A stretch of DNA of 62,326 bases, counting the filler. It is 9 parts of 9 records of this genome, joined end to end, with 100 filler letters (N's around TTAATTAATTAA, not from the genome) between each part and the next. Parts side by side here need not be neighbours in the genome. Positions count along the whole stretch, not along the records: positions 19,645 to 25,616 come from SRR7504441_8083; 8 more parts are not named here. One strand, written 5' to 3'. Made by a program: the position numbers and the translations under genes. Below, piece by piece: positions 6,632-46,167 of this stretch (the first letter of the stretch is position 1; the number at the start of each line of letters is the position of its first letter). Below the pieces are notes generated by a model. It searched no databases and had not been told where the DNA came from. It saw only the letters and a list, made by a program, of their open reading frames with translations.

Positions 6632-6731
6632 NNNNNNNNNNNNNNNNNNNNNNNNNNNNNNNNNNNNNNNNNNNNTTAATTAATTAANNNNNNNNNNNNN
6701 NNNNNNNNNNNNNNNNNNNNNNNNNNNNNNN
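6632..6731. other. Artificial contig linker (N44-TTAATTAATTAA-N44)
   Basis: Fixed 100-nt spacer with stops in all six frames, identical at all 8 junctions. Confidence 0.99.
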
Positions 6732-6764
6732 CCCCCCCCCCCCCCCCTCCTAAGCCGCGCAGTC

Positions 6765-7079
6765 TCACATGACTGCGCAATCTCTGAACCCGACCGTCGC
6801 CCCTCGGATCCTATTCATCTTGCCGCAGCCCCGGCATCGCCAGCTCGGCGCGCCGGGGGGCAGCGGGTACGGCACTCCGCAGAAGGCGCACGGGGTAGGA
6901 TGCACAGCCAGGGCGGTGGGCGCAGGGCCGGCGGACACCGGCTGGGCCAGCACCGGCTGGTGGGCCGCAGGGTGGTACGGCGGGGGCGGGGCCATGGTCG
7001 GGTGCGCCGGTACCGCATGGGCCGTGTACACCGGGGTGCTCTCCTCTGACTTGTTCAGCGAGAGCTTGTCATCAGACAT
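6765..7079 (-). CDS. Small Pro-rich zinc-ribbon protein with C-terminal CaaX box
   Basis: MSDDKLSL... PPPPY, CAFC..CRGC (two CxxC) and terminal CAVM-stop. Head-to-head with the ABCA gene. Confidence 0.6.
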   Translation of the reverse strand: MSDDKLSLNKSEESTPVYTAHAVPAHPTMAPPPPYHPAAHQPVLAQPVSAGPAPTALAVHPTPCAFCGVPYPLPPGAPSWRCRGCGKMNRIRGATVGFRDCAVM

Positions 7080-7197
7080 GGCCCTCTCTCTACTGCTTTG
7101 GAAACGGACGGCGTCACTCAGACTGCAACGCGGACCCGGCAACCACGACCGGGCGCTGATAGCACCAGCGCGGAGGCTGTATCAGCCGGTGCCGCAG

Positions 7198-10100
7198 ATG
7201 AGCCGGGACCCGGCCAGCGAGCGCCCCCCTCGAGCGGGCGGGCAGCTTCCGCCTGCCCGCGCCCATCAGCTCAAAGCAGGGGCCTGCGCGCAGCTCCGGC
7301 TGCTGATGTGGAAGGCCTTCAAGCTCAAAAGCCGGCAGAAGGGGGCCTCGTGCGCCGAGATGCTGCTCCCGATCGGCTTCTTCTGGCTGCTCGCCTTCCT
7401 CAACGTGTCGCTGGTCCGCCCGATCCACGAGCCCAGCCAGAGCCAGTTCCTAGGCACCGCCGGTAACGCAAACTGGCTCTCGCCGTTTATTGCCTACCAA
7501 TTGACCGGCGGCCGGGTCCTATTCGCCCAGGGCTCCTCCGCGGAAGAGGCACCCGCCGCCCTCGACCGGCTCTGTAATAAGGCTTACCGGCTCGGCCTGT
7601 CCGCGCAGCAGACGGCTGCGGGCAAGCTGGCGGTCGAGGGGTTCGTGCGCGCGGCGATGGCGCAGGCCAATCTGACCCAGGAGCGGCTGGCGGGCGGGGT
7701 GGAGCACCCGGTCTGCCAACGGTGGGACCCGGACATCCAGCCGCATGGAGTGATGTTTGACTCGGCTGCGGAGATGGAAAGCTTTGTGATGCAGCGTGCA
7801 GGCCGCCGTAATGAAATGCTGATCAGCGCGCTGTGTGGGCCGCCCGAGAGCCCAAATGTGACCTCCTCCGACGCGGTGGGGTGTGTGGCGGCTCAGTGCG
7901 CCGGTGAGTTCGATCAGTGTGCTGTGGCTCCCGATTGCATGATTGGCATGCGGTGCATGCAGGGCTGTGAGGCTAATGCCAGCTGTACTGTCATGTGCGG
8001 GCTGAAGCACAGGGCATCGGCGGAATTCGTCGAGGCGGTGTCGTGTGGGCTGCGGGAGGGCTGCTGGACATCCGTGCGCGGGGCCGATAGTGATGATGGC
8101 AACGACGATGCAGCCGGTGAGGAAGACGACATCCCCGGTGACTTCAACGCTGGCTGTCTCTTGGCCCAGGCTATGATCAGCCAGTACACGGGTGTGGTGC
8201 TGCATAGTCCCGGCCCGCATTGGGCTTACACGATCAGGACTAATTCTACCCAGCTAGGCTCTGGATCCAGTATCGCCCGGGGCCTCGTCACCAACATGCC
8301 CAGTACCACCACACTAGTCAGGCCATTCATGCCTGGCGCGTCGGACGGCTGGCGTGGATATGCGATCAGTGGCTTCGTGTGGCTCCAAAATCTGATCAAC
8401 TCGGCCATCCTGGACGACGCAGGCTCGTCAGGCTCCGAGGGGTCTGGCTCTTACACAGCCTTCCCCACCCCTTCATACGTTGTTAACCAGTTCATTCGTG
8501 TGCTGTTTCCAGTATCTGGCGGCTCGTTTGCGGGCTTCCTGCTCCAGTGCTTCTTCGTTATCTCTATCGGTCAACTGACCAAGGGGATTGTTACTGAGAA
8601 GGAGAAGCGGATCCGCGAGGGGCTCGCGACTATGGGGCTCAACACCTCTGTATATTGGCTGCACTGGATACTATTGTATGTCATCATATACGGGCTAATG
8701 ACCCTGCTGCTGGCCAAAGTCTGCACGTGGGGTCTCTTCACGTACAGCTCCTTTTGGCTGCTAGCTGTTTTCTTCCTGCTCTATCTACTGACTTTGCTGA
8801 CCTTTGGGCTGCTCATGTCAGTGTTTTTCACTCGAGCTAACGCGGCAGCTACAGTGGCCATGATTGTCAACCTCTCGCTGTTCTTCGTATGCAGTCTCAA
8901 GACCGATTCGCACTTGAGCAACGTCATGCTATCTCTCCTGTCCCCTGTGGCGTTCTCCAAAGGTCTCGGGGTGATTGGCACAGCAGAGGGAGGCCAAGTT
9001 GGCGTGGGGTTTGCAAACGCGTCGAATCAAGTCGGTGTAAGTGGAGCACTCACTCTTACTGAGGTTCTGGTCATGCTGGCGGTAGACGCGGTCTTGTACT
9101 TGCTTCTGGCACTATACTTTGATCAAGTGATTCCGCAAGAGTTTGGTCTCACTCAGCACCCATGTTTCTTTGTGTTCCCATCGTATTGGCGCCCTACCCG
9201 TGAGGTGATGCTCCCACAGCCCGACTCGCACAGCCAGCTCGGCGACGAGGATGATGGCATTGAGCTCGTTGAAGGCAACCCGGGCCTACAAAACTCTCCA
9301 GAAACAGTGGACCCAACCACCCCTCTTTCAATACCAATAGACATGCCATCTAGCGCAGAGAGCAAGGATGTAGAGGTGCTTACTCCAGATAGCAGCACCC
9401 ATGTAGGCATCTCGGTACAGGGGCTCAGGAAAGTATACAACACAGCTGATGGCGAACAGCGAGTGGCTGTGGCTGGTCTGGAGCTTGACTTCTTCGAGGG
9501 CCAGATCACAGTCATCCTTGGACACAATGGTGCCGGCAAGACTACCACAATTAACATGCTCACTGGAATGTGCCCGCCATCAGCCGGGGATGCTTATGTG
9601 AGTGGCTTTAGTATCTGCAACGCCATGGACGCAGTCCGGGCAAATCTTGGTGCGTGAACTCATGCTGCGGTGCTTATTGGTTGCAGGTGTCTGTCCTCAA
9701 TACGACATCCTGTTTGACCATCTTACAGTTGATGAGCACTTGCAGATGTACGCACGGCTCAAAGGCGTTCCTCGAAGAGAGATTGCCGATCAAGTGGAGG
9801 CGATCGTGCATGCTGTCGATCTTGCATACAAACGGCGTGCCTACGCTTCGGCGCTGTCAGGTCACTCCACTCTTAATACGATGCTGGTTGTTGGTCTAAC
9901 GAACTGGGTTTTAGGTGGAATGAAGCGAAAATTGTCAGTTGGGATTGCCCTCATCGGTGGATCCAAGGTTGCTTTTCTCGACGAACCGTCCAGTGGAATG
10001 GACCCCTCTTCTAGGCGGAAGATTTGGGACATGCTCAAGGAAGCCCGAGCCGGCCGGACCATTGTCCTTACGACACATTTTATGGACGAAGCAGATATCC

Positions 10101-13100
10101 TAGGAGACCGGATCGCGATCCTCTCGATCGGCAAGCTCCGAGCTGCGGGCACATCTCACTTTTTGAAGGCACGCTTTGGTGTGGGCTACACACTGACGTT
10201 GGTCAAGACCGGTGAGGATTCGGGTCAAAAGCTGCGCGAGCTTGTGCTGCTAAGTATACCGACGGCAAAAGTGGTCTCAGATGCTGGATCTGAGCTGTCC
10301 TTCGGGTTGCCCTTCGCAGCTAGCGCCGACTTTCCCAAACTCCTAAAGGAGTTTGAAACTCGACGCAAAGATCTCGGTCTCGGATCATATGGTCTCTCCG
10401 TGACTACACTCGAGGAGGTCTTCTTAAAGGTTGCTGAAGGGGAGCTCACCAGTGAAGACCCACCAATCTTTGATGACCAAGCCGACGAGCACATGCTTGC
10501 CGACCAAAATATTGAAAACAAGAACGACAGCCCAGCAGAAAGCCCGCCAGCGCCACAGAACGACACGGAGATGCTAGTCAGCTCAAGGGCCGGTGGTCGA
10601 TCAGAGAGCCGTCTTGTAGATCAAGGCGAGCTCAGGACACTATGCCGCCATGTCTATGCCCAGCTGGCCAAGCGAGGTTCTCAGGCAAGACGGGATCCTA
10701 GAAGCTGCATCTTTGTGTTTCTCATCCCAATAGCAGCGGTGGGTACTGCCCGCATTCCCAAGCTTACCCTGGTGGTTTAGGTGCTATTTGGCCTCATATT
10801 TGTGACTGTACTCGGATCGCAACTTGATGAGCCCAGTCTGCAACTCGACTTCACGAATGCCTTGCTGAAGAGCGACAACCTCTATGTCCCGGCAGTGGGC
10901 GACCTGTCCTCATCAGATAGCGACGCTCTTCAACAAGCATTGCCAAAAGTCAAGCTGACCTCCCCTGTTCCCAACACTACACCGCAGCTCCCTTGCAACG
11001 AGTCGTCCACCTACTCTCGACCCTGGGTTGCTTCAGTGGTCGAAGGTCTTCCACAGGTCAAATCCTCAACTTACGAGTACTTTGTGCGTCTAGCTAAACC
11101 CTATGTGGGGATCGCTCTGAATTGCATTTATGGTCGCTATTGCTGCATTGATGCGCATTCGGAGGAGGACACTTCAGACCGGCGTGAAGGCGAGGAATGC
11201 CTTGTTACGGACAATTCCCTGTGTTCAAGCGTCGGTAATGACTGCTGCGTCACTCGAGACAAACATCAGCACGAGGAGGCGACCTGCCGCGCCGGGTATA
11301 TTCCACAGATGACGGGGAACGGCTGCGGCAACAAAGGCAAAAGTCACGAATATCGATGCTGTAAACCTCCCGAAGAGTCAAGTTGTCCTTCTCCTGATAT
11401 GGCTGTGATACCAAGCTGCGAAGAACAATCAGAAGATGGAGATGCACTTCGTGGGATCCTGAGGCTGGACGAGCACTTGCTTGACGTCACTGGCCAGCCT
11501 GGCACGAGGCTCTCACACCTCGGGTCTCTGGTGTTCCGGGGTGAGTCTTTGGATCGCTTCACAGTTCTGCACAACACAGTGGCGCTGCATGCACTGCCAA
11601 CATGGCTTGGTGCCCTCGACAACGCACGACTCACTGCAGCCAACAGTGAACAGAGCATCACTGCTAGTAATCATCCTTGGCCCAAAACCCACAAGCAGAA
11701 AGTGAGCTTCGAGCTAGCTGCGGGGCTCCTGGTGGCGCTGCTGATCACAATGGGTCTCTGCTTTGTGCCCGCTGCGTTTACGTCTTATATTGTTCGCGAG
11801 AGGGAGCGCAAGACGATGCACCAGCAGCATGTGTCCGGGCTGAGTGTCTTCGCTTACTACTTTGGCAATCTTCTCTTTGACCTGCTCAGTTTCACAATTG
11901 CTATGATTATGATTCTAGGCCTGTTCTACCTCTTTGCCGACTACGCCCCAGCTTACACACACCATTTGAGCGAAACTTGCCTCGTTTTTGTTCTGTATGG
12001 CTTATCCTCAACTGCCTTCTCCTACGCCTTTTCCTTCTGCTTCAGTTCGTATGCATCAGCAACGGTGCTCTGCCGATGCCGCTGGTGTTTATTGCTTGTT
12101 ATCAGGTCGGAGCGCTGATGATGAACATTGTTAGTGGCTTGCTTTTCATGATAACGAGCTTCATCTTGCAAGCAATTGACGATGACACCAAGCAGGTTAA
12201 CAGTGTCCTAATCGTCTTTTTCTATCTATCGCCAGCCTTTTGTCTAGGGAACTCGCTGCTTGCCATATTTGCGTACTATGCGCTCGAAATCGTTGGAGCC
12301 GAATATGACGTGGATACAACTGAGCTGGCCAGTGACTTTGTAAACCTGTGGAACCCGCATGCGCAGCTCAACATCATCGTGCCAGTGATCTACATGACTT
12401 GTGGGTTCTTCTTTTACTTTCTGTTGTCCTTGATGCTGCAGCATTGGACCGGAGAGATTAACTGGTGTCTTTGGTGCAATCGTTCCGCCACAGACGACTT
12501 AGAGGCAATCAGCGAAGACGAAGACGTCCAGGCTGAACGCCACAGGGTAGAAAGCGGGAGTGCTATGCAAGATCCCATTGTGCTCAGCCAACTTCGGAAA
12601 GTCTACCCACCGCGACGGAATGTTGGACCAAAGGTGGCGGTTGCCAGCAGTTCTTTCGCTGTGCGGGAAGGGGAGTGCTTTGGTTTACTGGGAGTCAATG
12701 GTGCGGGCAAGACAACCACCATGGCAATGCTGACAGGGGAGTTCCGCCCAACAAGTGGTGGCGCCACTCTGGCGGGCTTTGACGTGGTAAAAGAGCGAAC
12801 CAGCGTGTATCGTAATCTTGGGGTGCGCGCCTCTTTCTCATTGCGCGATTAAGGCACTGTGCGGCAGTTCTGTCCGCAATTTGACGCTCTGTTTGAGAAA
12901 TTGACCGCAAGGGAACACCTGCAGCTCTATGCGACCATACGAGGAGTGCCGAGGGCCAAACGTGATGCCGTTATCGACCAAATCATTAGAGACCTAGACC
13001 TTGGAGAGTTCCAGAACAAGCTCGCAGGGACCTATTCTGGTACGGATTTGGGGCCGAGCGCATCGCTCAGCATGTGGTGCGTGGCAGGAGGGAACCGTCG

Positions 13101-15678: not shown

Positions 15679-17633
15679 ATGAGTTGCGAGGCCGAGCTGG
15701 AGCGGCTGCGGGCGGAGAACGCCGCGCTGCGGGCCCGTCTCCGCTGGGTTGGGCCGCTGATGCACCAGCAGGCCCCGGCGAGTGACGGGCGGGCCGACCG
15801 ACTCAAGGGCGCGAGCTTCGAGATGACCGGCGACCGGGCCGACCAGGACAGCTGGGTAAAGATGGCGCAGAACCGGGCCCATATGCGCGGCGCCGGCTTC
15901 CAGGCAGTCCGCCCGGTGGCAGGCCGGCTGACGGGCTGTGGCAGAGCGCAGACTTCACCAAGCCGATCGTGACGGTGGCGGTGACTTACTCGAACGCGCT
16001 GGAGTGCAACAACACGCTGCTCGACCTGGCCCGGGAGGTGTGCCGGCAGGTGGAGAGCCGGGGCGGGGTGGGGTTCTACTGCATGTGCCCGGTGATCTCA
16101 GACGGCAACACCCAGGGCACCACGGGGATGCGGTACTCGCTGATCTCCAGGGACTGGATCGCAGACTGTATAGAGATAATGCACTCCGGCTACATGGCGG
16201 ACGCGTGCATCACGCTGGGTGGCTGTGACAAAACCGTGCCTGGGTGCGTCATGCCGCTCGCCCGCACCGACGCCCCGGGCGCATTCATCTACGCCGGCCC
16301 TTTGGTGCCAGGCCATTGCGACCCGCCGCTCCGTCCAGACGCCCCAGCGCAGTACCACCGGGGGCTGGACGCGGGCAGCGTGGTGGAGGCGAGTGGCTCG
16401 TTTAAGGCCGGTCTGATCGACCTCGAGGAGCTGCACCGGATAGAGTGTGCGGCGATGCCGCGTTCAGGCACCTGCTCCGGCATGTTCACAGCAAACACAA
16501 TGGCGTGCGTAGTGGAGGCGCTCGGGATGTCTGTCCCAGGCCAGGCCGCGCACGTTGCCGCCTCGTCGGATAACCTCCCAAGCGAGGCCAAGATGCAGGA
16601 CTGCAGCGATGCGGTGGCCAGTGTCTTTCAGATGCTTGAGGCTGGAGTGACAGCGAGGCAAATCATGACCCGGCCGGCCTTTTTGAACGCGGTTGTGGTG
16701 CTGTATGCAGTCGGAGGGTCGACAAACGCCGTGATCCATCTGCTCGCGATGGCGCGTGAGGCTGGGCTCACCGAGGACGAGTTCAATATCACCATGTTCA
16801 ACCATTACAACGATACTGTGCCGATCCTGGTCAATCTAAGTCCTCACGGGCCGTACCACATGGTTGATCTGGACAGAGTAGGCGGGCTGCCGCTCATCAT
16901 GAGAGAGCTGCTCGAGAACGGGCTCATCACAGGCGACTGCCTCACTTGCACTGGAAAGACCGTATCCCAGAACCTGGCTACTATCCCGCGGCTCGCCGAC
17001 CTGCCTCCGCAAGATGTGGTGCTGCCCGTGTCCAGCCCGCGCGCCGCCCCGGGCCGGCACATCATCGTGCTGTCGGGCAACTTGTGCCCAGGCGGATCGG
17101 CTGTTTGCAAGCTCTCAGGTAAACGGATCGACAGGTTCAGCGGCTCTGCTGTCGTGTTCGATGATGAGAAGCTTGCCTACGACGCGATCCAGGCCGGGGT
17201 GGTCACTGCCGGCTGCGTGTGTGTGATACGGTACCAGGGCCCGGCTGGGGCGCCAGGCATGCCCGAGATGCTTTCGCCTGGAGGCGCGCTGGTAGGCAGA
17301 GGGCTGGGGGAGAGTGTCGCGCTGCTGACCGATGGCCGGTTCAGCGGGGCAAGCAGGGGAATCATGATCGGCCACTGCTGTCCTGAAGCAGCGCACGGCG
17401 GGCCGCTGGCTTTGTTGAGGGATGGGGATGTGATCCGAATCGACATGACGGAGAGGACGATCGATGTCGAGCTAGAAGCGCAGGAGATGGCCGAGCGGTC
17501 GCAAGTGTGGCAAGCGGTGCATCAAGGCCGGGCGCATCCCAAGCTGCCCGAGGGATACGCTGGGGTCTTGTCCAAGTATGCCTGCTCGGTCGGGTCGGCG
17601 CACGGCGGAGCGCTAACGAGCGGGCGATCATGA
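15679..17633 (+). CDS. ilvD: Dihydroxy-acid dehydratase (IlvD/Edd family)
   Basis: [84 protein letters not shown]. One intron ending at 15944 gives GF..DFTKPIV. Confidence 0.95.
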
Positions 17634-19544: not shown

Positions 19545-19644
19545 NNNNNNNNNNNNNNNNNNNNNNNNNNNNNNNNNNNNNNNNNNNNTTAATTAATTAA
19601 NNNNNNNNNNNNNNNNNNNNNNNNNNNNNNNNNNNNNNNNNNNN
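19545..19644. other. Artificial contig linker
   Basis: N44-TTAATTAATTAA-N44. Confidence 0.99.
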
Positions 19645-20331
19645 CTCGCACGCCACCTGCGCAGCCTCTGCTTGCCTCAGCTGCTCGGCCCTCCCCACAG
19701 CCTGCCTCTCCATGGCCTCCAGCCGCGCCCGCTGCTCTTGGCTCTGCTCCGCCCACCGCTCGCAGCTGTCGGCCAGCTCGCCGTTCTGCTCTCTCAGCTC
19801 CGCCACCGCCGCCGCTTGCCGCTCCGCCGCTTGCCGGCTGAGCTCCAGCTGCTGGGCCAGTCCGTTGCTCCGGTCGGTCTCGTCAAGCTCCCGGCCGACC
19901 GCCTCCTCCAGCCGCCGCTCCAGCTCGTTGCACCGGGTCCGGTCCCGCTGCCGCTCGGCCCGGACCGCCTGCCGCTCGCGCTGCCGCTCGTCCACCACCG
20001 CGCTGTCGGAGGCCTTGCGCTCCCGCTCTAGCGCCTCGAGCGCCAGCGTCAGCTCGGCCTGGAGCGCCGCGTTCTGCTCCTCTTGGTCGTGCAGCCGGCA
20101 GCGGGCCTCGCGCAGCCCGGCCACCAGCGCCTGCGGGTCTGCGCGCGGCGACTCCGGGCCTACCACCGAGTAGCCCGGCCAGTACTGCGACGAGGCGATC
20201 CGGGAGGGTGTGCTAGGGTAGAACATCTCGTCCCCACCACAGGCACCGTCAGGCGGCTGTTGTAGCCCGGGCCGGGCCCAGTGAGCTTGGTGAGACCGGG
20301 AGGGCGTGCTCGGGTAGAACACTCGATCCAT
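19645..20331 (-). CDS. Coiled-coil protein with duplicated N-terminal FYPSTPSR motif, 3'-truncated by the contig end
   Basis: MDRVFYPSTPSR...EMFYPSTPSR followed by E/R/Q/A-rich heptads running into the linker. Confidence 0.6.
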
Positions 20332-20510
20332 TCAGGTGAGCAGCTCCGACCTTGCTTGAACTGAGCAAATTCCGTTACCGTTGAGCAGCCCAACGTCGAG
20401 AGCCACTCGACCTGTGCTCTCGCGTCGAGAGCCACTCCCGCAGGCTACTAGACCAGGATGCCGCGCGTTTGGGGTGGGGAGGACATCCCCAAGGCAAAGA
20501 CCGTCTTCGT

Positions 20511-21916
20511 ATGGCCATCCGGCGCCGCCCGAGCAGACAAGGCCTCCAGCCGCCGGCCGGGGCCGGTGCGAGGGCCGAGCAGGTCGACATGCAGAACGTC
20601 ACCTTCAACCCGGGCATGTCCGAGAAGCAGGTCAAGGAGTTGCTGGTCGACGAGTTCGATCTCGACTGGTACCCCCCGCCCGGCCCGCCCCCCTGACCGG
20701 CGGCGCGCAGCGACCCGAACGACATCCTCGGGCTGGTCGACGGGTACAACCAACTGTGTGACAAGCTGAGCGACATCGCCAGCAACCGCAAAGGCACCCG
20801 GCCCGGCCGCTGCGGTCTGCTAATCGCCCGCAGGCTACCACATCCGGTTCCGGGACGAGCGCAGCGTCGAGATGTCTCAGGTGGCGGGCGCCAGGCGCTA
20901 GGCTGACATCGGGGGCAGCTGCGGCGAGAGAACGACAAACTCAAGGAGCAGCTGGCCGCGGCCGGCGGCAGCTCGTCGGGCGGCGCGGATGTGCCCCGCT
21001 CGGGGTGCGGCGCTGATCCGGCGGTCAGGCTGAACTGCGGCGGCTCCGTGAGGAGAACGAGAAGCTGCGGACTGAAAACGCTAAGCTCAAGGTGCCCACG
21101 ATGCGAGAGCCCGGCGCCGACCGGCCGGACAGCGGGAGCTTAACTCTAACGACAGCTCGAGCAGCAGCAGCAAGAGGTCGCGGCCGCACAGGGAGAGGCT
21201 GACGGAGGGGCAGGACCAGCGCTGCCTCAGAGCGCAGCAACACCACCGAGGTGCGCTGCTGGCCTTGTGCTGGCACTGAGGGTGCCGTGCGCCTCAGAGC
21301 TCGAAAGATAAGCGGCGCGGCTCATTGGAGGAGCGCTCAATGAAGCTGATGCCAAGGTGCCGGCCAGCTGTGGCAGGGTGCTGAGGACGGGCAGCTCTAA
21401 GGATACCCGCAGTGACAGAATGAAGGCTGCGGCGTCCAATCCTCTGATGGCGCCTGACGAGCCCAAGCCCAAGAAGACTCAGCCCAAGAAGAGCAGTGGA
21501 GCACCTGCAGAGGGTGGTGTTGCACAGGGCGACAGAATTCAGGACATTGCTCTGGCCATACCAACTGGCGCTAGCCAGGGTACGCCTTCCACTCGGTGGA
21601 CAGCCTGCTGATCGTGTATGAAATTTCAGGGACGCAGAACTACGAGAAGCTGAAGGAGCATTGGCTGGAGGGCTGCGATGATGGAGTGCGTTGCCACTTA
21701 GAGGGCGTTGTTGACGGTGCCTGCAGGAACTTCCAGACCCTGAAGACCTGGAGGATCACGTCGACGACCTGCTGCTGTCAGAGAAGCCAAAGGTCTTGCT
21801 GTTGGCTCCAGTTTGAGCCGCTGAGTGTTGGTTGGCAGTATGTGAGGGAGGCTGTGCCACTATCGAGCTTGATTGACGCTCTTGCCGACCAATGGATGCG
21901 AGATAACGTGTTGTAG
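20511..21916 (+). CDS. Multi-exon hypothetical protein with central coiled coil
   Basis: Exon-like segments (MSEKQVKELLVDEFDLD; LRRENDKLKEQL; LREENEKLRTENAKLK; PLSSLIDALADQWMRDNVL-stop) separated by short GT-AG blocks. Confidence 0.45.
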
Positions 21917-22183
21917 AGATGATAGATTTAATTGCATCCGTGTATGCATCGCCAATTGACGAGGCCTTGAGCCCTCGACATCCATAAAATTGATAATCGT
22001 CTTCGTAAGTTACACTTGTAGTGATGTTTAGGATGAAATTATTTTGGGGAACATAAGTCATTGAACAAGCTCAAACATGAGCTGCGCATGCCTATGTAGT
22101 AATCTATGTTTGGTGTACGTGTATGGTGTTTGTTTGGTGAATTCAGGCGCAAATCGTTACGGCTTCGCATAACTTTGCTTCAT

Positions 22184-25100
22184 TCAACAATATACCCAGC
22201 CACAACAATCTTTGCTATTGCAGTAGCATGCTTGTTCAAATTGTTCGCGCTCAGGGACCGTCTCACGAGGATGGTAATTGATGGTTAGCTCTTCACCCTT
22301 TGTCACATTTCGGATGGTGATGAAGATGACGCGAGGTGGACAGCCCTCATGCTCATAGACATCGTAAGCCACCATGTTGGGGCTGCACGAGTGGTTTATA
22401 AACCGGGCTGCATTCCCGACGATCGTGGTGTCGATCGTGTACTGGGCAGTGTCTTCATTCTCAATGTCAAAGCTGAGGTACAGGCTCTGAGCATTGTATA
22501 CTTCTTCTCGGCGGTCAGCCTCGCGCTCAGTCACCACTTCCCCAATATACTCGACCACAAACTGCCCACTGGGGATGTCCGCGTCCGCAACCAGCCCTGC
22601 TCCCTTGCGCTCGTCCATGAGCTTGATTCTGAGTGGGAAGCGCACCCCTTTCCTCACCACTGCATTCCCACACACACCCCGGCTGCAATGCAGGCGAGCA
22701 AGCTCCCCCGAGCAGCGGCATCCGCCCGGCTTGTTAAGCGGGACAGGAGCAGAAACCCACGGCTGAGGGCGGCCACTGTTCATGATTTCTGGGCACCACG
22801 GTCCAATCGAGGTGCACCCAGCCATCGCGTTCTCATGCCACAGCAACAGCTGGTTCAGCGGGAGTGGTACCGACACAGGCACCTGTCCACTGTCAGTGGA
22901 TCGCCCTGCCAGGCACTTGCCTGGCCATGCAAGGTGCTGACTAGCGCTGCTCGGGTCGTGACATACCGAAAACCGAGCTGCTCAGGATCGAGATCCGACC
23001 AGACCATCGGCTCCACTTGGCAGCCACGACTCGCCTCCAAGTGCTGCAGGTTCGCGTGGCACACTTTGGCCACCTGACCACGACTAGTCAGCCCATCGGC
23101 ATTCAGCTTTGGGGTTACAAGCTCCGGATTCCACTCCAACGGCAGCGTATTTTCAAAATTGATCTGACGACCAGCTTCCTTTGCTCGGAGGTCGTACTCG
23201 GCTGCTGCGTCTTCCGGTGTGGAGTAGCATCCGAGATAGGTCTGCTGGCCGTTCACACATATGGTTGCACTCCACCTGCACACAGAGTCGCATTTTTCAG
23301 TTGATAGCTTGAACCAGAGATAGATGGCTCACCTCTCATGTGTTCCTGCCATAGCACTAACTCCCTTGTAGAGACACCTGGTCTGAGAAATGGTCCTCAC
23401 CCTGTTTTTGCTTGTGTTTGATCGTCGATGTTTCGGCTTGTGCTTGCCCTTCCCAGAGCACAGTTGCGCATGCTCCTTCTCAAGATCCTTATGTTGCTTG
23501 ATCAGACCACGTGGCCGAGTCACTGTATCAATTTTGGTTGGCCTTGTAACTGAGAGCCAAGGTCGCGGCGCCTGAGAGCGCAGGTGAGGCCACAGCGTGC
23601 GCTCATGATGCCTGTGCGCAGAAATCCAGCTTGACATATAGGACTGGCTCCGCCTCCAAGGCCACCTGCAGTGATTGGGTAAAATCCGCCGGCATCAGAT
23701 AGGCTTGCCGCTCTAAGGTGCAGCTCAAGTGGCGCCGACTTGAACAACTCTTGGGCAAATTCCTTGATCAAGTCGGGACAGAAGCAGTTGCTCTCCTCCT
23801 CCCAGGACAGTTCGGTCGACCCAACCCATTTGAGCAGAATCCAAAGGCGGCCGCTCGTGTCGACATCAAGATCCACGACTTCCTCCACCTGCCCAGCTGG
23901 TTTCAACCAGCAGCAAATCAAGCCGACCATACCTCCCAGCTAGCATCATCCGCAGCTCCTTCACCCCGTTTTGAGTGCTTGTTGGACCTTTGGTGGTCCT
24001 GCCGAAAGTCTCTGATGATAGCTAGCACCTCAGCGCCACTGGGATTGTTTTCGTCATCTAATTGCCGTTCAATTTCGACCACTGAACGAAGCTTGGTACC
24101 ATCATTACAAGTCACAATCATGTCTTTGACGCCTGCAGAGGCCCCCGACTGTCGCACCTTATACTCTACTGTCCAGCCATTGGGCAGCTCCAGACTGTCG
24201 TCGTTGGCACCACGATGGAACCTGCGTTGCTTACGCGTGCGGTCTTGCGGTGGACTGAACTTTCGGGGTGCTTCCCGCTTCCTGGAAGGTCGACGCGTCG
24301 TTCCACTGCGTCCTCTCTTGGCTTCTTTGATTGGTGCGGCATCTTCAGCATCCAATTCGCTGTCCTGCTGATTCTGCACCTCCCTGCACAGCACAGTAAG
24401 AGTGACGAACACGCAGCGATCGTCTACCTCAGCAGCATTCTCTTCCGTCCGTCGCCGATTTGCTGGTTTGAGATGCAAAGCTTGTCACATAGGATTGACA
24501 GCCGGAGCTTGCCAGCCTCGCCTCGGAATACCTTTTTGAATTCCGATTGCTCGTCGGTACTCAGGACCTACCCCCAAAGTCAAGGCTGATCTATTCGCTG
24601 CATGTGCTGGAATCTAGAGGTGCAGTTACCCGGTCATCCTCGATTCTAGTCATGAATCCTTTGTCCTCGATGGCAGCTTGTTTCACATCATGCTCCTTTC
24701 GGACAGCCCTAGGCGACCTAGCAGGAGCTTTTAGCGAGCGAGTAGGTGTCCCTTTGCTGTAGAAGCGCGCCTGCTTGTATTCTTGGATGGCATTCACAAT
24801 GTCTGTTGTCTTCTGCACAGTCTCATCGCTCAGATACTGCTGCACTTCTGGTACTGAACGAAGCCTTGTGCCATCACAAGCAGTCACAGTCAGGTCAATC
24901 CGACTTGCATCACTCTGCCGGACTCTGTGCGTGATAGTCCACCCGTGTGGCAAGTCTGTTGGCTCGAGCTCCGGGAGCCTGCTGGCAGGACTAATCTTCG
25001 GCCGGGACTTGGGTCGTTCTGCTTTGCTAGACTTCCTTGCTGCCACGCTGCAGTGGGCAGCTCTGTACTTTTGTACTGCAGCCACCACATCCACAAGTCG

Positions 25101-25616
25101 TGGATCACCATTCATGAGTCTTTCAATCTCCGGCACTGATCGAAGCCTGCTGCCATCGTTGCATATCACCACAATGTCAACGCTTCCTGCTGAATTTCCG
25201 GTCTTGCGAACGCTGTGCGCAATCTCCCAGCCATTTGGTAGTTCCATCCGCTCACAGTCTGCATGCCCTGCTCGCGACTTGGTTCGCTTGTGTGGCTTCT
25301 CGTCCTCATCATCTGAGGAATCGTCACTGTTGCGGCCATATTCAGCATAATTCACTTTTGTTCGTCTCCTAGCTGGCCTGGCCTCCAGATCCACGGGAGC
25401 GCTTGGCTCATTTAGCACGGCGCTCTTCCTCTTGAGCCTGCTGCTTGTACCAGCTTCAGGCACAGGAGCAGCAGGCTCAGCTTCAAGACCGACGGGCTCA
25501 GCTTTAATTTCGACTGTACCAGTTTGAGCTGCACCGTCCGTTGAAGGCTCCCCAGCCTGGGTTTCAAGCCCTGAAGCCTCTGCCTCGGGATCCGCAGCCT
25601 CAGCCTCAGCTGCAGG
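22184..25616 (-). CDS. SUV39/Clr4-like histone lysine methyltransferase with 3 MBD-like domains, chromodomain and AP2 domain; 5'-truncated by the contig end
   Basis: SET: KGAGL, FVVEYIGEVVT, GNAARFINHSCSPN, GEELTINY, post-SET CYCNSKDCCG. AP2: YKGVS..HE R|WSATICVNGQQTYLGCYSTPEDAAAEYD..INF. Chromo: WE|VEEVVD..LLKWVG..SWEEESNC. MBD-like: LPNGW..VRK.G.SAG..D....DG.RLRS..EI (x3). Introns 23889-23932, 23276-23332 and 22883-22920 join modules in frame. Confidence 0.8.
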
Positions 25617-25716
25617 NNNNNNNNNNNNNNNNNNNNNNNNNNNNNNNNNNNNNNNNNNNNTTAATTAATTAANNNNNNNNNNNNNNNNNNNNNNNNNNNN
25701 NNNNNNNNNNNNNNNN
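25617..25716. other. Artificial contig linker
   Basis: N44-TTAATTAATTAA-N44. Confidence 0.99.
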
Positions 25717-27474: not shown

Positions 27475-27828
27475 ATGGGCCGGCGGAAGAGTGCGGCCAA
27501 GCCACCGCCCAAGGCTAAGGCGCCCAAGCTCGCCATCACGTTTGACTGCCCGTTCTGCAACTCTAAGAAGTCGGTCGAGTGCAGCATGTCCCCCCCCCCC
27601 CCTCCAGCCGGCCTGAACCGGTCGGCCAGGGACAAGAAGCGGTACTTGGGGACGCTCACGTGCCGAATGTGCGGCGTCGAGTACCAGATGATCACCGACT
27701 GTGCGCCGCCCTGCCGCCGCCCGCTGAGTGGCCGGGCAGACCTGACTGAGCCGGTGGACGTGTACTGTGCCTGGATCGACGAGTGCGAGAACGTGAACGA
27801 CGACGGGAACGAGGACCGTGAGGATTAG
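27475..27828 (+). CDS. ELF1: Transcription elongation factor Elf1 (zinc ribbon), 2 introns
   Basis: MGRRKS..FDCPFCN..SVECSM|DKK...CRMC...TD Y|LTEPVDVYCAWIDECE. In-frame introns GTCCCC..CCAG and GTGCGC..GGGCAG. Confidence 0.95.
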   Translation: MGRRKSAAKPPPKAKAPKLAITFDCPFCNSKKSVECSMSPPPPPAGLNRSARDKKRYLGTLTCRMCGVEYQMITDCAPPCRRPLSGRADLTEPVDVYCAWIDECENVNDDGNEDRED

Positions 27829-32305: not shown

Positions 32306-32405
32306 NNNNNNNNNNNNNNNNNNNNNNNNNNNNNNNNNNNNNNNNNNNNTTAATTAATTAANNNNNNNNNNNNNNNNNNNNNNNNNNNNNNNNNNNNNNN
32401 NNNNN
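32306..32405. other. Artificial contig linker
   Basis: N44-TTAATTAATTAA-N44. Confidence 0.99.
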
Positions 32406-38528: not shown

Positions 38529-38628
38529 NNNNNNNNNNNNNNNNNNNNNNNNNNNNNNNNNNNNNNNNNNNNTTAATTAATTAANNNNNNNNNNNNNNNN
38601 NNNNNNNNNNNNNNNNNNNNNNNNNNNN
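38529..38628. other. Artificial contig linker
   Basis: N44-TTAATTAATTAA-N44. Confidence 0.99.
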
Positions 38629-42640: not shown

Positions 42641-42740
42641 NNNNNNNNNNNNNNNNNNNNNNNNNNNNNNNNNNNNNNNNNNNNTTAATTAATTAANNNN
42701 NNNNNNNNNNNNNNNNNNNNNNNNNNNNNNNNNNNNNNNN
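42641..42740. other. Artificial contig linker
   Basis: N44-TTAATTAATTAA-N44. Confidence 0.99.
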
Positions 42741-46067: not shown

Positions 46068-46167
46068 NNNNNNNNNNNNNNNNNNNNNNNNNNNNNNNNN
46101 NNNNNNNNNNNTTAATTAATTAANNNNNNNNNNNNNNNNNNNNNNNNNNNNNNNNNNNNNNNNNNNN
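46068..46167. other. Artificial contig linker
   Basis: N44-TTAATTAATTAA-N44. Confidence 0.99.

Follow-up and report, generated by a model that had tools for sequence, protein, structure and literature searches.

The 62,326-nucleotide stretch of DNA analysed here (the window) comes from an uncultured marine eukaryote, a protist, and carries on its minus strand, between positions 25616 and 22184, what is probably one nuclear gene of at least nine exons. Although its 5' end is missing, this gene would still code for some 1014-1047 residues or more of a chromatin protein. An acidic and basic low-complexity stretch would be followed in it by two MBD domains (MBD1 and MBD2), 47 residues from an exon that belongs to no known family, a third MBD (MBD3), a chromodomain resembling that of HP1, a basic linker, an AP2-type domain, a degenerate pre-SET, a SET domain and a post-SET. 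Reader and DNA-binding domains are thus added to a SUV39-type SET enzyme, and the combination of three MBDs, chromodomain, AP2 and SUV39-like SET was not found in the databases or literature searched. An earlier reading of the letters alone (the sequence-only reading) had placed these domains collinearly on the minus strand, and so they are. The upper limit, position 25616, is the end of the contig that carries the gene (19645-25616, 5972 nt), beside a synthetic linker, so the 5' part of the gene is lost, which that reading had not noticed, and the sequence past the linker is unrelated to it. In search of the missing 5' end, the ends of all other contigs in the window were compared with the terminal repeat, which turned up nowhere but in the gene itself.

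The last exon (22184-22882) contains the degenerate pre-SET, the SET domain (approximately 22603-22274), a post-SET of the form C-x-C-x4-C and the stop codon TGA (22186-22184). With Pfam, the SET domain scores 86.9 bits as one unbroken stretch of 110 residues that covers positions 1-104 of the 105 in the profile. Its closest structures in the PDB are SUV39H2 (E 4.4e-24), Clr4 (8.5e-24) and EHMT1/2 (about 2e-23), followed by KMT2D (6e-22) and SETD2 (2e-18). The motifs NHSCSPN and GEELTINY are intact and line up with their counterparts in SUV39H2, in Clr4 and in nine proteins of SUV39 type, and the post-SET, C-Y-C-N-S-K-D-C, aligns with a Clr4-type chain and nine comparators. Since the SET motifs and the post-SET are kept, predicted catalysis is plausible, the thinned pre-SET being a reason for caution.

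Around the pre-SET, conservation extends to the F-x-Y-[IV] flank ahead of it and to its final motif, C-x4-C-x-N-x-V-V-x-K-G. The remainder weighs against an active enzyme: Pfam Pre-SET finds no match at E<=1 on the last exon, five of the nine cysteine columns are kept, together with one cysteine in a 10-residue insertion, and the C-x-C pair of the nine SUV39-type comparators is replaced by H-E-N, all in an alignment of low similarity that is secure only in the final motif. Judged from these residues the pre-SET is degenerate, and with it the enzyme could be unstable or inactive. Of the pre-SET/SET/post-SET module proposed earlier, the SET and post-SET therefore stand, but the pre-SET does so only in this eroded form.

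Relatives of the SET domain were taken from the best 120 of 291 database matches, which are led by Su(var)3-9, SUV39H2, EHMT and SUVR5 (35-42% identity) and continue with SET2/NSD types, identities spanning 28-43% overall. A tree of 54 rows, picked by hand from these matches and built by a quick method, places our SET inside the SUV39/EHMT/SUVR/SUVH group (Shimodaira-Hasegawa-like approximate likelihood-ratio test, SH-aLRT, 91, unstarred) and apart from SET2/NSD (96, starred), which is moderate support. Within that group it joins, weakly, a chromodomain-bearing SUV39 set (SH-aLRT 83). The highest identity over the tree columns is 39%, to the SUVR5 protein P0023. The SUV39-like affiliation of the first reading is weakened to this degree. 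The branch of the query is long (1.31) and sister to another long branch, a point against any exact placement, which is unsure.

That sister is P0070, an MMETSP transcript of 1058 amino acids (SH-aLRT 86). It has in common with our protein a cysteine-poor 'LWH' pre-SET and a G-F-x-Y flank; in contrast, only the SET domains align (E 1.6e-25), and P0070 has no MBD, chromodomain or AP2. The pairing may be an artefact of two long branches. The pre-SET cysteines are missing from P0070 too (..ILWHPAH..), which is the SET relative closest to our protein in the tree, and its N-terminal stretch looks Tudor/Agenet-like by eye, with no Pfam detection at E<=0.01. The similarity hints at a putative protist group of KMT1-like enzymes with a cysteine-poor pre-SET and varied reader domains.

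Three MBD-like repeats had been read from the sequence, and all three are confirmed. By repeat alignment, MBD1 occupies 25262-25029, MBD2 24974-24741 and MBD3 24208-23975. Pfam MBD (PF01429; cut-off 21) scores 36.7 bits over two stretches corresponding to MBD1 and MBD2, and 21.7 bits for MBD3; all 26 PDB matches of the MBD1-MBD2 stretch are MBD proteins, MBD2, MBD3 and MeCP2 among them. The repeats are pairwise identical at 27-33 of 76 residues, and no tandem repeat is present at the DNA level. From work on MeCP2 and MBD2/3, DNA is contacted through an Arg, an Asp and a further Arg, and the tyrosine of a conserved D-x-Y helps distinguish methylated from unmethylated CpG, as seen with MBD3 and MeCP2. 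The Arg, Asp and Arg positions are kept in all three repeats. Weighing against methylation reading, the tyrosine is replaced by V, T or I in each of them; among 19 comparator domains, Tyr is aligned at this position in 16, lies one column further on in two (D-R-T-Y, D-R-C-Y) and is Phe in one (D-R-F), and human MBD2 has D-V-Y. The loss is consistent across repeats that have otherwise diverged (27-33/76 identical).

To us, the loss of tyrosine from the three predicted MBDs looks selected rather than decayed. Since they have no tyrosine, we expect these domains to bind CpG or DNA in general rather than to read 5-methylcytosine (5mC) strictly, and methyl-specific reading of DNA by them appears doubtful. 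The CpG/5mC reading ascribed to the protein earlier is weakened to this extent: the residues of the DNA contacts remain, but the one associated with methylation does not.

The chromodomain, likewise proposed earlier, stands, even though its Pfam score (Chromo, PF00385; 22.1 bits, E 1.5e-4) is below the cut-off of 25.1. All 36 PDB matches obtained with phmmer are chromo or chromoshadow domains, CBX5 (3.6e-9) and CBX1 (1.4e-6) among them, and the chromodomain of SUV39H1 itself reaches 0.059 only in the same search; by these similarities the domain is HP1-like. A methyl-lysine cage consists of three aromatic residues. The W of L-L-K-W is kept, and a W in the preceding exon (..SWE), outside the alignment, is a possible first cage residue. 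Against reading of methylated histones speaks the third cage position, aligned to the F of K-W-K-G-F in CBX1, which is Ser, and binding of methyl-lysine by this chromodomain may accordingly be weak. The proposed coupling of H3K9me reading and writing is weakened by this Ser.

Between chromodomain and SET, several kinds of similarity make a DNA-binding module of the AP2 type very probable. The domain was scored on a translation that reads through the intron dividing it (in-frame TGA as X), and its first strand does not enter the Pfam score. Three separate PHROG families annotated as 'HNH endonuclease' match the stretch with a non-catalytic part of their profiles (phrog_99 at 2.5e-8, phrog_3593 at 5.5e-5 over read-through residues 5-88, phrog_953 at 2.4e-4), and phrog_99 matches the AP2 3' exon alone (E 1.4e-7). 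We infer that the regions matched are AP2 modules, on the basis of protein atlas clusters that carry HNH_3 and AP2 together. The neighbours of our domain in this atlas are AP2 and HNH_3+AP2 clusters (scores 0.81-0.83), which is a lead only. In the PDB, four of six matches belong to AP2 proteins, the alignments covering strands 2-3 and the helix: WRI1 (3.3e-7, summed over two AP2 repeats), TEM1 (0.066) and ERF1 (twice, 0.31).

It could be argued that the gene is single but the 'AP2' is a chance or relic similarity with no AP2 function, the real architecture being three MBDs, chromodomain and SET. Several results weigh in this direction. Pfam AP2 (PF00847), the sole family reported on the read-through, gives 13.4 bits (E 0.098, profile positions 14-50 of 54) against a cut-off of 33.3, and the 48-residue AP2 exon piece alone has no Pfam match. 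The AlphaFold model of the read-through is poor, with a mean pLDDT of 61.5, and uses intron-encoded residues as a strand, Foldseek returns no match to it at E<=0.001, and the atlas scores are the lead mentioned above. However, the Pfam score is sub-threshold because the intron divides the domain. The three PHROG families and the AP2 proteins of the PDB speak against chance, and in the sub-threshold Foldseek list, AP2 entries at ranks 3, 4, 5 and 8 have the highest probabilities (0.66-0.77), with rmsd of 1.7-2.7 Å. Moreover, the spliced upstream exon provides a Y-K-G-V strand at the right distance, which we take to be an AP2 hallmark. We therefore consider a non-functional AP2 unlikely. The AP2 call of the sequence-only reading, the weakest of the domain calls, is supported by the phrog_99 and WRI1 matches, with a Pfam score below threshold.

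The gene model that joins these domains is as follows, all features lying on the minus strand and a slash marking exon borders. Exon 1 (24630-25616), cut at the 5' side, encodes an Ala/Glu/Pro-rich acidic stretch, basic patches, MBD1 and MBD2. Intron 1 (24568-24629; 62 nt, GT-AG, G/GTAACT ... GGGTAG/G, phase 0) joins its frame without a stop to exon 2 (24428-24567; 140 nt; VLSTDEQSEFKK..., VLSTDEQSEFKKVF...), its open reading frame (ORF) starting exactly at the acceptor; Pfam reports no family for this exon at E<=10. Intron 2 (24384-24427; 44 nt, GT-AG, AG/GTAGAC ... GTGCAG/G, phase 2) leads to exon 3 (23933-24383), with a basic linker, MBD3 and the first chromodomain residues (..SWE). Intron 3 (23889-23932; 44 nt, GT-AG) divides the chromodomain (..SWE/VEEVVD..), the HP1-like core of which, up to about 23745, is found in exon 4 (23709-23888) along with the first part of a linker; where exon 4 stops on its 3' side is ambiguous. 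Beyond the chromo-to-AP2 junction zone (23550-23708), which has several candidate introns, the AP2 5' exon (23333-23549) holds a basic linker (KGKHKPKHRR...) and, from about 23376, the first AP2 strand (..LYKGVSAMAGTHE..). Intron 6 (23276-23332; 57 nt, GT-AG, AG/GTGAGC ... GTGCAG/G), with an in-frame TGA inside, divides the AP2 domain, and the AP2 3' exon (22921-23275) contains the remainder of AP2 (23275 to about 23152) and the SUV39-type pre-SET flank (..DLDPEQLGFRYV..). Intron 7 (22883-22920; 38 nt, GC-AG, CAG/GCAAGT ... GGACAG/G) precedes the last exon. The 3' untranslated region (22100-22183) is at least this long, as a contig from an RNA library extends past the stop codon into it, and lies in an AT-rich trough common to this gene and a convergent gene on the plus strand.

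Five introns (1, 2, 3, 6 and 7) are firm. They measure 38-62 nt, and in each of them the flanking exon base is G on both sides (G/GY...AG/G). The introns at 23889-23932 and 23276-23332 had been predicted before, and their frames join as claimed. For intron 7, the GC-AG form predicted earlier fits and keeps the frame, but so does a GT-AG alternative (22966-22890); we prefer the former because the alternative deletes the conserved F-x-Y-V motif. Of the two junctions the sequence-only reading had left open, the MBD2-MBD3 gap is now closed by introns 1 and 2 around the 140-nt exon, whereas the chromo-AP2 junction is still ambiguous. Two features of the splicing weigh against the model: in the preferred versions, one to three of the 7-8 introns are GC-AG, which is unusual, and no GC-AG introns were seen in other genes of the window.

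Short introns also occur elsewhere in the window. An ABCA-like ABC transporter gene (6754-12852, plus strand; Pfam ABC2_membrane_3 and ABC_tran) has an intron of 37 nt (9650-9686, GT-AG) in the same G/GT...AG/G context as in our gene, dividing the nucleotide-binding domain, and a probable second intron of 42 nt (10739-10780) with an in-frame stop inside. Short introns, as the 37-nt one indicates, are hence normal for this organism. For dinoflagellates, one study describes GC/GA donors and, in Amphidinium, a median intron of 439 nt (PMC12584245); the 37-62 nt introns seen here do not fit that median.

The homologies of the domains, and a spliced frame that runs through them without a stop, are observed; from these we infer a single transcript. 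All five gene models built to completion stay in a single frame of 1014-1047 codons, which is open at the contig edge, closes with the TGA and contains no internal stop. Intron 3 divides the chromodomain and intron 6 the AP2 domain, which favours one gene, and the C-terminal half of AP2 shares an exon with the SUV39-type F-x-Y-V flank. The MBD3 ORF has no in-frame ATG ahead of MBD3, and in the AP2 ORF the sole in-frame ATG downstream of 23520 falls within AP2. The GC content within the gene is 52-62% (minimum 51.7%), dropping to 42-47% only after the stop, at 21845-22244, where the convergent gene ends. Because internal segments have no usable starts, three domains are split by introns and no intergenic GC trough exists, one gene is the best reading.

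The weakest link in this chain is the chromo-AP2 junction, the sole one with no split domain in its support. The chromo frame meets a stop at 23520, the junction admits 209 formal single-intron solutions, and seven consensus-like models are indistinguishable by codon usage (0.155-0.191 per codon), so that no splice model is favoured; the candidates comprise two GC-AG introns (23708-23666 and 23611-23572) flanking a 54-nt exon, a single 44-nt GT-AG intron (23593-23550) and single introns of 116-143 nt. Neither of the two RNA-library contigs described below bridges this place. All this counts against a single gene, and the junction could be a place where two genes abut: an MBD-chromodomain reader ending with the TGA at 23522-23520, and after it, on the same strand, a separate AP2-SET gene. 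In that case, however, the second gene would have to start within AP2, or at the next upstream ATG of its frame (around 23640), at the price of about 120 nt of gene overlap. At roughly 23564, under 50 nt ahead of the chromo-frame stop, the AP2 frame takes over in frame-wise coding potential, and no space is left in which a 3' untranslated region, intergenic DNA, a promoter and a 5' untranslated region could fit. The GC content at the junction is 52-56%, as opposed to 42-47% at the true 3' end. Two adjacent genes are thus a rather improbable arrangement, yet the one we take most seriously after a single gene.

RNA-library contigs from two marine studies match two exons of the gene at 99.4-100% identity. 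One covers the SET exon and 3' untranslated region (22100-22569, 3 differences in 470), and the other the MBD2 exon (24665-24872, 0 differences in 208). Coverage comes from two runs only, with shares of 0.10 and 0.05 of the stretch, and uncovered parts are uninformative. As evidence for a single gene, these contigs have drawbacks: both lie inside single exons and span no splice joint, RNA libraries can contain DNA, and no transcript or homologue among those compared backs any splice junction.

The matches do bear on a further explanation, namely that the contig is an assembly chimera or the gene a decaying pseudogene, in which case its exons would be true remnants of chromatin genes from which this protein is no longer produced. 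At 5972 nt the contig is short; it breaks off inside the gene and stems from a metagenome-style assembly (a concatenated bin), in which a chimera is possible, to the detriment of the single-gene reading. Pre-SET cysteines, MBD tyrosines and one chromodomain cage residue have been lost. On the other hand, a decaying gene would hardly retain 1014-1047 codons free of internal stops in all five models, uniform splice signals, and intact catalytic SET motifs with a post-SET. The MBD pairs, with 27-33 of 76 residues identical, keep their Arg/Asp/Arg positions, which points to selection, and near-identical RNA-library contigs at two exons also speak against this explanation. We regard this explanation as very improbable and retain a single gene as the favoured reading. 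Origin from a transposon or virus was also considered and is ruled out: there are no integrase, reverse transcriptase or HNH domains, and the introns are of the host spliceosomal type.

Searches for relatives of the whole architecture were started from both of its ends. None of 8000 candidates among longer proteins matched the MBD exon at E<=1e-3, and no orthologue was found among 1.84 billion representatives, where 16 weak matches passed the same threshold, the strongest genuine one having E 1.7e-7. The top match, P0001, is spurious, a SpaA-repeat protein aligned to the low-complexity part. Thirteen of the 16 were scanned with Pfam (P0012, P0015 and P0016 were left out); 12 are MBD proteins, many of them multi-MBD, and SET, chromo or AP2 occurs in none of the 13. 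Neither MBD (PF01429) nor AP2 (PF00847) was found among the best 120 of the 291 SET matches, nor in ten unnamed or protist SET relatives rescanned at E<=0.01. In metagenome contigs, the SET exon gave 99 pattern matches, of which none was confirmed. The rarity of the architecture asserted by the first reading is therefore upheld among the MBD and SET relatives examined. The literature search likewise found no report in which MBD or AP2 is joined to a SET of SUV39 type, the supplementary architecture tables of Grau-Bove et al., which could hold a case, being outside this search. The passages of that work on DNA-methylation readers joined to SET enzymes name MBD in animal SETDB1/2 and SRA in plants, with AP2 unmentioned there (Grau-Bove et al., bioRxiv 10.1101/2021.11.30.470311).

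Among known systems, SUV39H1/2, Su(var)3-9 and Clr4 resemble our protein in having a chromodomain N-terminal of SET, in the F-x-Y-[IV] flank and as the best SET/post-SET match, and the working would be the same if the chromodomain here reads the mark that the SET writes. Unlike them, our protein has a pre-SET devoid of four of nine aligned cysteines, a chromodomain nearer to HP1/CBX with Ser in its cage, and three MBDs and AP2 in addition. SUVR5 (zinc fingers, pre-SET and SET), PRDM9 (PR/SET and a zinc-finger array) and SUVH (SRA and SET) are DNA-directed histone methyltransferases. They follow the same logic, a DNA reader in cis directing a methyltransferase, but the DNA readers here are AP2 and MBD instead of C2H2 fingers or SRA. 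Multi-MBD proteins (P0003, P0008, P0009, P0011, P0013, P0014 and others), MBD2/3 and MeCP2 share with it the tandem MBDs and the motifs L-P-x-G-W, R-x-S-G, D and L/F-R-S; they keep D-x-Y, where our repeats have V, T or I for Tyr, and have no SET, chromodomain or AP2 (none of the 13 scanned).

SETDB1/2 (Tudor, MBD and bifurcated SET) also unite an MBD and an H3K9-type SET in one polypeptide and are the known precedent for MBD-SET coupling (bioRxiv 10.1101/2021.11.30.470311). They differ from our protein, in which the SET is unbroken and the MBDs are three, not one. By Pfam, no Tudor was found in the surviving part of the protein, and the missing 5' end could hide more domains; no SETDB-type proteins are among the best 120 of the 291 SET matches. 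A SETDB1-type identity is ruled out, the SET not being bifurcated.

The window itself is not one molecule. It consists of nine contigs joined by eight synthetic linkers (6632-6731, 19545-19644, 25617-25716, 32306-32405, 38529-38628, 42641-42740, 46068-46167 and 53273-53372), each composed of N44, TTAATTAATTAA and N44. Genes on the two sides of a linker are physically unlinked, which voids synteny arguments across linkers, and contigs of one bin may differ in origin. On the contig of our gene, the convergent neighbour on the plus strand (19645-21916) reaches 74% GC and has coiled-coil-like exons and a small-GTPase-like exon (..SLLIVYEISGTQNYEKLKEHW..); with 52-62%, our gene is lower in GC than this neighbour. 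On other contigs, an intronless gene for dihydroxy-acid dehydratase (15786-17633, plus strand, 615 codons) has its best match, 69%, in an unnamed ENA protein, and its named relatives, from dinoflagellates, the amoebozoan Paradermamoeba, sponges and the haptophyte Prymnesium, reach 52-56%. As they come no closer than this, the bin has no close sequenced relative. A short ORF (27475-27828, plus strand), beginning MGRRKSAAKPPPKAK..FDCPFCN, presumably encodes a zinc-ribbon protein of the transcription elongation factor 1 (Elf1/ELOF1) type.

What would such a protein do? Its SET would be catalytically active as a KMT1 (SUV39/EHMT/SUVR) lysine methyltransferase, with H3K9 the most likely target. Recruitment of the enzyme to DNA would happen in cis, through the DNA-binding modules of the protein itself, AP2 conferring a sequence preference, the three MBDs multivalent binding, or avidity, on CpG-containing DNA, and the chromodomain added affinity for methylated histone tails. 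Such an enzyme would both initiate and reinforce repressive chromatin at defined DNA. Its logic would be that of SUVR5 and PRDM9 (zinc fingers), SETDB1 (MBD) and Clr4/SUV39 (chromodomain), brought together in one chain. Catalytic activity, H3K9 specificity and all the binding specificities are predictions from homology. In its strongest form, the proposal is a self-contained unit that starts and spreads heterochromatin, in which AP2 would pick a motif, the Tyr-less MBDs would clamp CpG-rich DNA regardless of methylation, the SET would write H3K9me and the chromodomain would re-bind this product; we put it forward tentatively, as a possibility that more probably fails than holds.

The present value of the finding is limited, since the organism is uncultured, the gene is cut short and the model is predicted from sequence. 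The lineages studied differ in how they initially direct H3K9 methylation to given DNA: fission yeast uses small RNAs, vertebrates use KRAB zinc fingers with SETDB1, and plants use SRA domains reading 5mC. If the proposal is true in its strongest form, the protein would be the first AP2-SET fusion and an independent route to DNA-sequence-directed H3K9 methylation, in a lineage without a cultured relative. With a sequence-specific AP2 and a triple MBD beside writer and reader, it would offer a small natural case in which direct recruitment in cis can be put to the test. As variants made by nature, the triplet of Tyr-less MBDs and the pre-SET poor in cysteine could reveal the role of the features conserved elsewhere. 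Finally, AP2 is the main transcription-factor family of alveolates and plants, and this family would here be physically linked to the writing of heterochromatin.

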